From NCBI RefSeq assembly GCF_003334815.1, contig NZ_QOWO01000054.1: DNA of 18,303 nucleotides. The stretch is one strand, 5' to 3'. The DNA comes from Escherichia coli. GTDB taxonomy: Bacteria; Pseudomonadota; Gammaproteobacteria; Enterobacterales; Enterobacteriaceae. Each line of letters begins with the position of its first letter. Positions within the stretch are counted from its first letter, which is position 1. A model generated the notes under the pieces. That model saw nothing but the letters and a program-made list of their open reading frames with translations. It was not told the origin of the DNA and did not search any database. Positions 15,219-15,802 of this stretch are shown here, one piece after another. The translations under genes and the position numbers were made by a program.

Positions 15219-15235
15219 GTCAGGGAGAGGAACGT

Positions 15236-15802
15236 ATGTTTATTGCATTCATTATTATTGTCATTCTTCTGGGCGGGTTTGTGCTCCTGCTCCGTCAGGC
15301 CGGTCGTGCAGCGCATCCACTTCTGCAGTCATTGCGGTCAAGGGGTATACGGCCTGGTGCAGCAGAGCTGTTGCTGTGCAGCAGGCCATCATTTGTCAGT
15401 GCCGGCCGGTTAATGACCGAACGGGAGCAGCGCTTTCTGCGCCGGCTGGACAGGGTGACAGATACCCGCCAGTGGCGGTTATGTCCGCAGGTTCGTGTGG
15501 CCGATATCGTCAGAGTGGCGCCCGACCGGAAGTCCGGCAGCCGTGAATGGTGGCAGTTATTTCGCCTGGTGTCACAGTGGCACTGCGATGTGGTTATCAC
15601 GGACCGTGCCGGGCGCATCATTGCAGCGGTTGAGCTGGACGACCGGTCTCATCAGGAACCGAAACGTCAGCGGCGTGACCTGCTGCTGGAAGAGGTGCTG
15701 AAACAGGCGGGTATCCCGCTGTTGCGTGGCGATAATGAACAGCAACTGGCGGCGCGTGTCAGGGCGCACCTTTGCGCACAGCGTCCGGAGGCCGCAGCAT
15801 GA
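15236..15802 (+). CDS. Membrane-anchored DUF2726-like protein (PD-(D/E)xK nuclease-fold superfamily), function unknown
   Basis: 188 aa from the ATG at 15236 with RBS GGGAGAGG. N-terminal hydrophobic helix MFIAFIIIVILLGGFVLLL, then a conserved core LCPQVRVADIV...WWQLFRLVSQWHCDVVITD...IAAVELDDRSH. Starts 17 nt after the traI stop and overlaps the traX start as ATGA. Paralogous to the ORF at 17931. The family name is from memory. Confidence 0.6.
   Translation: MFIAFIIIVILLGGFVLLLRQAGRAAHPLLQSLRSRGIRPGAAELLLCSRPSFVSAGRLMTEREQRFLRRLDRVTDTRQWRLCPQVRVADIVRVAPDRKSGSREWWQLFRLVSQWHCDVVITDRAGRIIAAVELDDRSHQEPKRQRRDLLLEEVLKQAGIPLLRGDNEQQLAARVRAHLCAQRPEAAA

Follow-up and report, generated by a model that had tools for sequence, protein, structure and literature searches.

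A DUF2726-family gene encoding a predicted membrane-anchored nuclease-fold protein between traI and traX of an Escherichia coli F-like plasmid

In plasmid F the relaxase/helicase gene traI (92673-97943) is followed directly by traX (97963-98709), with 19 nucleotides (nt) and no gene between them. What, then, is the gene that separates traI from traX on the Escherichia coli plasmid represented by contig NZ_QOWO01000054.1 (assembly GCF_003334815.1), and what might it contribute to a conjugative plasmid? We analysed a stretch of 18,303 nt from this contig, referred to here as the window, in which an open reading frame (ORF) of 188 amino acids (aa) lies between the two transfer genes. We found that the ORF is a gene of the distal tra operon under purifying selection and belongs to the DUF2726 family. 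The family is known but uncharacterised, this member of it is already annotated, and its place between traI and traX is one of the gene orders already known for the F-type tra operon. Its predicted product is a membrane-anchored protein with a nuclease fold, for which we propose a role as a barrier to incoming DNA.

The three genes lie on the plus strand. The gene traI occupies positions 9924-15218, ending with a TGA at 15216-15218, and the pilin acetylase gene traX occupies positions 15799-16530; both assignments follow from the ORF list and from RefSeq annotation, which for traI is that of a 99.5% identical plasmid. The ORF (15236-15802) runs from an ATG at 15236 to a TGA at 15800-15802. It is preceded by a 17-nt spacer (15219-15235) holding the Shine-Dalgarno-like sequence GGGAGAGGA at 15223-15231, and its stop codon overlaps the traX start codon in an ATGA at 15799-15802. 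The ribosome-binding site of traX, GGAGG, lies within the 3' end of the ORF at 15787-15791, 7 nt ahead of the traX ATG. The original prediction had described the ORF, its spacer, its own ribosome-binding site and the overlap, as well as the direct succession of traI and traX in F, and all of these can be read from the sequences as stated. We rejected an alternative GTG start at 15158, which would give a protein of 214 aa, since that frame overlaps traI and the ATG at 15236 is the conserved start, the one to which the ribosome-binding site and the N-terminal membrane helix belong.

The translated protein matches the Pfam family DUF2726 (PF10881) with E = 1.9e-24 and a score of 86.2, residues 58-179 aligning to positions 3-123 of the 126 in the model, and has a weak secondary match to the REase_MTES_1575 family. 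All homologues of this protein, hereafter paralogue A to distinguish it from a second family member further downstream, carry PF10881. An identical coding sequence exists in RefSeq as WP_000469207.1, "DUF2726 domain-containing protein", placed between traI and traX. Orthologues at the same position in Salmonella, Yersinia and Serratia gave pairwise ratios of nonsynonymous to synonymous substitution rates (dN/dS) of 0.10-0.13, with dS above 2 for the most distant pairs, and the length of 188 aa is constant over the four genera. The G+C content of the ORF is 60.0% (62% at third codon positions, GC3), next to 60.5% for traI and 57.5% for traX. Because of the substitution ratios, the depth of divergence, the same-length orthologues and the match in composition to traI and traX, we regard the ORF as a long-resident gene maintained by selection. 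A recent foreign insertion was rejected, since both G+C and GC3 resemble those of the flanking genes and a dS of more than 2 between genera marks the arrangement as old.

Comparison with the traI-traX junctions of other F-like plasmids, as the original prediction had proposed, revealed the same arrangement in about 200 PLSDB plasmids and in three other genera. A 1,101-base pair (bp) junction probe was covered to 80% or more by 201 PLSDB records, whose hosts include Escherichia, Klebsiella, Salmonella and Citrobacter, and the window region is 99-100% identical to many E. coli plasmids. Among 5,426 complete E. coli genomes the traI/traX-type gene occurs in 67, plasmid-borne every time. The order traI-DUF2726-traX is kept in five loci from four genera, the same-position orthologues being 85-88% identical in amino acid sequence in Salmonella and 70% in Yersinia enterocolitica and Serratia fonticola. 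The ribosome-binding site, with its GGAG core and a spacing of 15-18 nt upstream of the ORF, is conserved in the same three genera, as are the ATGA overlap and a GGA(G/A) ahead of traX. Other genes are also found near these junctions. In an IncFII plasmid (NZ_CP065610, excerpt 1780-2199) an unrelated hypothetical protein of 139 aa with a C-terminal hydrophobic tail is encoded between traI and traX, and the F record carries a vapBC pair between traD and traI (excerpt 3967-4592). The distal tra junctions of F-like plasmids seem to tolerate gene insertions.

The wider family is far more common than this one position. More than 5,000 PLSDB records, chiefly of conjugative F-like plasmids, hold homologues that are about 45-56% identical to paralogue A and share its architecture, usually as single copies (5,102 places in 5,000 PLSDB records). 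The R100-type paralogue was found in 2,190 of the 5,426 complete E. coli genomes (about 40%). On R100-type IncFII plasmids the order is finO-ANR-thermonuclease-hha-DUF2726-repA2, and on IncFIIK plasmids of Klebsiella it is traX-finO-PIN-hypothetical-DUF2726-hypothetical-PLD-repA2. In the sampled traI/traX-type loci no second DUF2726 copy was found near repA2, and the traI/traX and finO/repA2 positions look like alternative homes of one backbone gene. A matrix of pairwise identities supports four enterobacterial sub-lineages, in which the traI/traX-type clade shows 69-85% identity within itself and 40-52% to the R100, FIIK and Edwardsiella types. A tblastn search of all 99,159 bp of plasmid F yielded no homologue. 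Most enterobacterial F-like plasmids carry this gene once, usually between finO and repA2; it is a near-standard backbone gene of F-like plasmids, and F is the outlier. Since F has no homologue at all, using it as the comparison made a common gene look exceptional, and the description of the ORF as an unusual, extra gene does not hold. The original prediction had also named the possibility that the gene is ubiquitous and already functionally assigned in F-like plasmids; the first part proved correct, but no functional assignment was found anywhere.

Within the protein, the DUF2726 domain spans residues 58-179 (15407-15772, plus strand). DUF2726 has been classed with Vsr and DUF559 inside the PD-(D/E)xK superfamily, with function "unknown" (PMC3424549), and was earlier noted as a DNase of the restriction-endonuclease fold fused to AbiJ N-terminal domains (PMC3710099). 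We built an AlphaFold model of paralogue A on an alignment of 86 sequences, which reached a mean predicted local distance difference test score (pLDDT) of 95 and a predicted template-modelling score (pTM) of 0.80. The model has a helix at residues 2-24 and two short helices, followed by an alpha/beta domain whose predicted structure shows the restriction-endonuclease-like core, in agreement with the published class (PMC3424549). In the alignment, which extends down to 25% identity, residues E64, D90, D118 and E133 are invariant, and R87, H116, D135, D136, H139, R144, R147 and D148 are at least 90% conserved. This pattern of residues points to a preserved active site. We consider it near-certain that the domain has the fold of the Vsr/DUF559/I-Bth0305I branch of the PD-(D/E)xK nucleases, and its set of conserved acidic and histidine residues is intact.

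The N-terminus of the protein appears to place this domain at the membrane. Codons 2-24 (15239-15307, plus strand) encode a predicted transmembrane helix, oriented with the N-terminus outside and the C-terminus inside according to the model, hydropathy and charge bias. The segment MFIAFIIIVILLGGFVLLL is strongly hydrophobic (Kyte-Doolittle mean over 17 residues, 3.32), with no basic residue ahead of it and an arginine cluster behind; counts of lysine and arginine in paralogue A are zero before the helix and 3 after it. In a scan of 1.84 billion proteins we obtained 3,835 family clusters at E <= 1e-3. The helix is present in 80 of the 101 full-length proteins among the best 150 representatives, which were the ones examined, and in 83 of 85 aligned members the stretch behind the helix holds more lysine and arginine than the stretch ahead of it (means 3.6 and 0.18). 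Paralogue A has the architecture typical of the family, namely an N-terminal hydrophobic helix followed by the domain in a protein of about 160-220 aa. By the positive-inside rule the domain is predicted to face the cytoplasm. Paralogue A is thus predicted to be a single-pass inner-membrane protein with a very short periplasmic N-terminus, one helix, two linker helices and a cytoplasmic DUF2726 domain. A periplasmic or secreted nuclease with a signal peptide was rejected as the leading model, because a positively charged N-region is missing and, across the family, the basic residues gather behind the helix.

The position of the gene suggests when such a protein would be made. The ORF has the features of a distal tra-operon gene: the same strand, tight or overlapping junctions, and conserved synteny. 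The junctions of the ORF, with their 17-nt gap and 4-nt overlap, are typical of this operon, in which traN and traF overlap by 4 nt, traD and traI overlap by 1 nt and traH and traG are 1 nt apart. No promoter-like site was found on the plus strand from traI to traX, and the single weak terminator-like stem there (5 bp) is within chance expectation. Given the tight junctions and the lack of a convincing promoter or terminator in this interval, it is likely that the ORF is transcribed with traI and traX from the tra promoter, and that its protein would be produced at the same time as the transfer machinery and the pili. In addition to co-transcription, the original prediction had inferred tight translational coupling. 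The conserved arrangement favors the former, whereas traX retains its own ribosome-binding site and RNA folding gave no structure that would enforce the latter. At either junction the RNA folds no better than shuffled sequences and has no common fold, and nothing in the folding suggested that the traX start is sequestered (z 0.2-0.8). On these grounds we rejected a structured RNA element that would enforce coupling. Termination at the ATGA can probably feed ribosomes into traX, which also keeps its own conserved site; coupling is plausibly permitted by the conserved ATGA, but not obviously obligatory.

What, then, might a membrane-held nuclease contribute to a conjugative plasmid? By analogy with known systems, we propose that the protein is a plasmid-borne barrier, a nuclease facing the cytoplasm from the membrane and cutting DNA that enters the plasmid-bearing cell, and we give this reading a probability of roughly 35-40%. 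The anchor would tie an otherwise dangerous DNA nuclease to the cytoplasmic side of the inner membrane, off the nucleoid, where it could cut DNA while it crosses the membrane. Potential targets would include DNA of competing conjugative plasmids that has passed TraS/TraT exclusion, DNA of pilus-specific or other phages, and transforming DNA. The protein would then complement TraS and TraT in exclusion, shield piliated cells from phage, or both, and would stand apart from the transfer machinery; that F transfers well without a homologue argues against a core role in transfer. Self and non-self would be told apart by location, as in SNIPE and Shield ShdA. A more far-reaching version is only a tentative possibility: that proteins joining a transmembrane helix to DUF2726 form an unrecognised and very widespread class of single-gene, membrane-sequestered nucleases acting as a last-line barrier of conjugative plasmids, and that their wiring into the tra operon in some lineages, this one among them, raises the barrier when pili expose the cell. 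If so, paralogues A and B could differ in target or partner specificity.

The surroundings of DUF2726 genes on other plasmids offer some indications of function. Thermonuclease or PLD-type nuclease genes recur near them on R100, IncHI2, Photobacterium, IncFIIK, Salmonella and Serratia plasmids, which suggests a possible pairing of a periplasmic and an inner-membrane nuclease. On IncHI2 the thermonuclease gene is followed by DUF2726 about 3 kilobases on, and a Photobacterium plasmid has the order ssb-DUF2726-thermonuclease-topoisomerase III. In a Vibrio cholerae plasmid an AbiE toxin-antitoxin module lies near the DUF2726 gene, as does a NERD nuclease-related gene in a Kozakia plasmid. A small Rep3 plasmid carries traT-DUF2726, and in Arsenophonus the order is TraI-DUF2726-hypothetical-Exc2 exclusion lipoprotein. 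The plasmid of Halomonas sp. KO116 is an independent case of embedding in an F-type transfer operon: its gene lies between traU and traN (excerpt 4884-5423), and its end overlaps the start of traN by 1 nt.

Several points weigh against a barrier to incoming DNA. We infer the nuclease activity of the domain from fold and conservation, and the topology is a prediction. An hhalign comparison with E. coli Vsr returned a probability of 0.2%, and a residue equivalence to the Vsr catalytic site, reported as E25/D51/H64/H69/D97 (PMC3239194), was not obtained. Searches of PDB sequences with the single sequence and with the 86-sequence profile gave no match, nor did the NCBIfam models match the paralogue A protein. 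The defence models of PADLOC-DB v2.0 yielded zero families at E up to 1, and the sole PHROG match was to a family of unknown function. In the literature on DUF2726/PF10881, its accessions, the R100 gene names, and membrane nucleases with entry exclusion, no functional study was found. The genomic contexts described above come from a small sample of about 10 loci. The presence of two paralogues on one plasmid may simply reflect recent recombination. Finally, a place beside traI and inside tra operons fits processing of plasmid DNA on the donor side equally well.

This last point is the core of the alternative that survives best, although we consider it unlikely. The protein may be a donor-side accessory of conjugation near the TraD/TraI relaxosome at the inner membrane, trimming or resolving the transferred strand or aberrant intermediates, or tethering plasmid DNA, and so improving transfer in natural hosts. 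The gene lies directly downstream of traI both here and in Arsenophonus, while in Halomonas it stands within the pilus-assembly block (traU-traN). Its expression would go with that of the tra genes, and the domain is predicted to lie on the cytoplasmic side, where TraD and TraI work. However, F is efficient in transfer without a homologue, and in most F-like plasmids the gene stands outside the tra genes, after finO and beside the replicon. The family is also broad (3,835 clusters at 50% identity), and DUF2726 genes are found in non-tra contexts and on mobilizable or non-mobilizable plasmids.

Somewhat less likely still is a non-catalytic, membrane-bound DNA-binding or regulatory protein, for example a plasmid anchor or a DNA sensor at the membrane. 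PD-(D/E)xK folds have in some cases been co-opted purely for binding, and at sequence level no significant mapping to the catalytic residues of Vsr was obtained. A constitutively active cytoplasmic nuclease would, moreover, have to be tightly controlled, and no conserved immunity or partner gene lies alongside. Against this, the four invariant acidic residues, together with a histidine and further aspartates that are at least 90% conserved down to 25% identity, form the pattern of an active site and not that of a binding surface.

The membership of DUF2726 in the same fold branch as Vsr raises the idea of a very-short-patch repair nickase for T:G mismatches arising from a cytosine methyltransferase, which we regard as highly improbable. 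The hhalign comparison with E. coli Vsr is not significant, neither the window nor the R100, FIIK, Yersinia and Serratia loci have a dcm-like gene beside DUF2726, no cysteine occurs in the invariant or nearly invariant columns, and a membrane anchor makes no sense for an enzyme of genome-wide repair. A spurious or decaying ORF, whether a chance frame or a remnant beside traX, is effectively refuted by the conservation data, with dN/dS of 0.10-0.13 at dS above 2, 188 aa in four genera, a Pfam E of 1.9e-24 and a pLDDT of 95.

The interest lies in the family as such: most F-like resistance and virulence plasmids of Enterobacteriaceae encode a predicted membrane-tethered nuclease that the model plasmid F lacks. 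Nearly all functional work has been based on F, and this is probably why the family has escaped functional study. If the protein is indeed a barrier to incoming DNA, it bears on competition between plasmids, on male-specific phages directed against plasmid carriers and on the persistence of resistance plasmids. If it aids transfer instead, it would be a new accessory factor of the clinically dominant IncF plasmids.

The region downstream of traX sheds light on the history of this plasmid. A second DUF2726 gene, paralogue B, which the original prediction had missed, begins at 17931 on the plus strand and runs off the window end at 18303 after 124 codons. It is of the R100 type, as judged from sequence, tblastn, blastp and the annotation of CP099216, being 99% identical to R100 WP_000766807.1 over these codons, and it is 56% identical to paralogue A over residues 28-171 (blastp). 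Ahead of it lie an ANR-like ORF (16720-16932), downstream of traX, and a thermonuclease-family gene with a signal-peptide-like N-terminus (17178-17639, plus strand), identified from its translation and from the CP099216 annotation. An hha/rmoA-like gene (17686-17893) is frameshifted by the loss of one A from an A6 run relative to R100 (the A-run is at 17749-17753). The identical lesion is present in CP099216, where the gene is unannotated, so this is probably a real pseudogene and not a read error.

A breakpoint can be placed at about 16926. Before it the window matches the pVP445/enterotoxigenic E. coli (ETEC) lineage at 97-99%; beyond it the sequence is R100-like (ANR, thermonuclease, hha and DUF2726), and the G+C content falls from about 60% to 37-48%. 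The remaining close relatives diverge near 16926, and the full arrangement with both paralogues was found in PLSDB only in CP099216 and CP099212 (97.1% identity). CP099216, a K88 (F4) fimbrial plasmid from pig-farm E. coli, is annotated with two DUF2726 genes. The window plasmid is thus a mosaic that holds both paralogues, which is rare.

Classical group A F-like plasmids are reported to be finO+. No finO was found between traX and the next gene (16531-16719) or in the other sampled traI-DUF2726-traX plasmids, and none is annotated in CP099216 segments 1-50000 and 79979-88372. Just past traX lies a strong terminator-like hairpin on the minus strand (16590-16614), with a 9-bp stem including 6 G-C pairs, followed by a T-run. 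This hairpin would stop antisense transcription from entering the tra operon. The plus strand showed no T-tailed hairpin of this kind.

Of the known systems, the closest are the DUF2726 proteins of R100 (WP_000766807.1, between hha/rmoA and repA2) and of the IncFIIK plasmid pKp11-42 (WP_022631529.1). Like paralogue A, they combine a transmembrane helix with DUF2726, and they share with it 45-56% identity, the invariant residues, the plasmid family, a place at the tra-distal end of the backbone and the usual single copy per plasmid. The difference is one of position, as paralogue A lies inside the operon and overlaps traX whereas the R100/IncFIIK gene follows finO beside the replicon. Paralogue A also has a higher G+C content (60%, compared with about 47% for the R100-type copy) and is the rarer of the two in E. 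coli (67 versus 2,190 of 5,426 genomes). An older paper labelled an R100-type gene, pEntH10407 ORF072, as "Superfamily I DNA/RNA helicase"; we rejected this label, since it fits neither the Pfam domain nor the fold. The Vsr/DUF559/I-Bth0305I ("EDxHD") branch of the PD-(D/E)xK nucleases is represented by PDB entries 1cw0, 3hrl and 3r3p. DUF2726 shows no significant sequence or profile similarity to Vsr and no family-wide conserved cysteine for a Vsr-type zinc site. Paralogue A has no NUMOD or helix-turn-helix modules and no intron or dcm context, and its membrane anchor has no counterpart in the proteins of that branch.

The functional analogy is drawn from elsewhere. SNIPE, a membrane-bound anti-phage protein, pairs an N-out transmembrane helix with a GIY-YIG nuclease in the cytoplasm; it cuts phage DNA as this is injected, and it is toxic when the helix is missing (bioRxiv 10.1101/2025.11.03.685801). 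The predicted topology of paralogue A is alike, with an N-terminal single-pass helix, an outside N-terminus and a cytoplasmic nuclease domain, as would be its sequestration at the membrane, the idea of which is to avert self-cleavage and to place the enzyme where DNA enters. However, SNIPE is much larger and consists of DUF4041 and GIY-YIG (catalytic E414), neither of which is present in paralogue A. Pfam returned only DUF2726 and the weak MTES_1575 match, and the transmembrane helix is the one feature in common, so paralogue A is not a member of SNIPE. Shield ShdA, likewise a single-gene effector, joins an N-terminal membrane anchor to a cytoplasmic RmuC nuclease and lowers both phage infection and transformation (PMC10270631). 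Its domain is RmuC and not DUF2726, it is encoded in chromosomal defence islands of Pseudomonas and not in a tra operon, and there is no homology; tests for the defining features of Shield excluded membership, and the relation is one of analogy. The exclusion proteins TraS and TraT are unrelated in sequence and fold and act without nuclease domains. As a barrier, the product of the gene between traI and traX would nevertheless resemble them as a plasmid-borne envelope protein of the distal tra operon that blocks incoming DNA. A traS-position ORF and traT lie upstream in the window, and on other plasmids DUF2726 genes adjoin traT or lie near the gene for the Exc2 lipoprotein.
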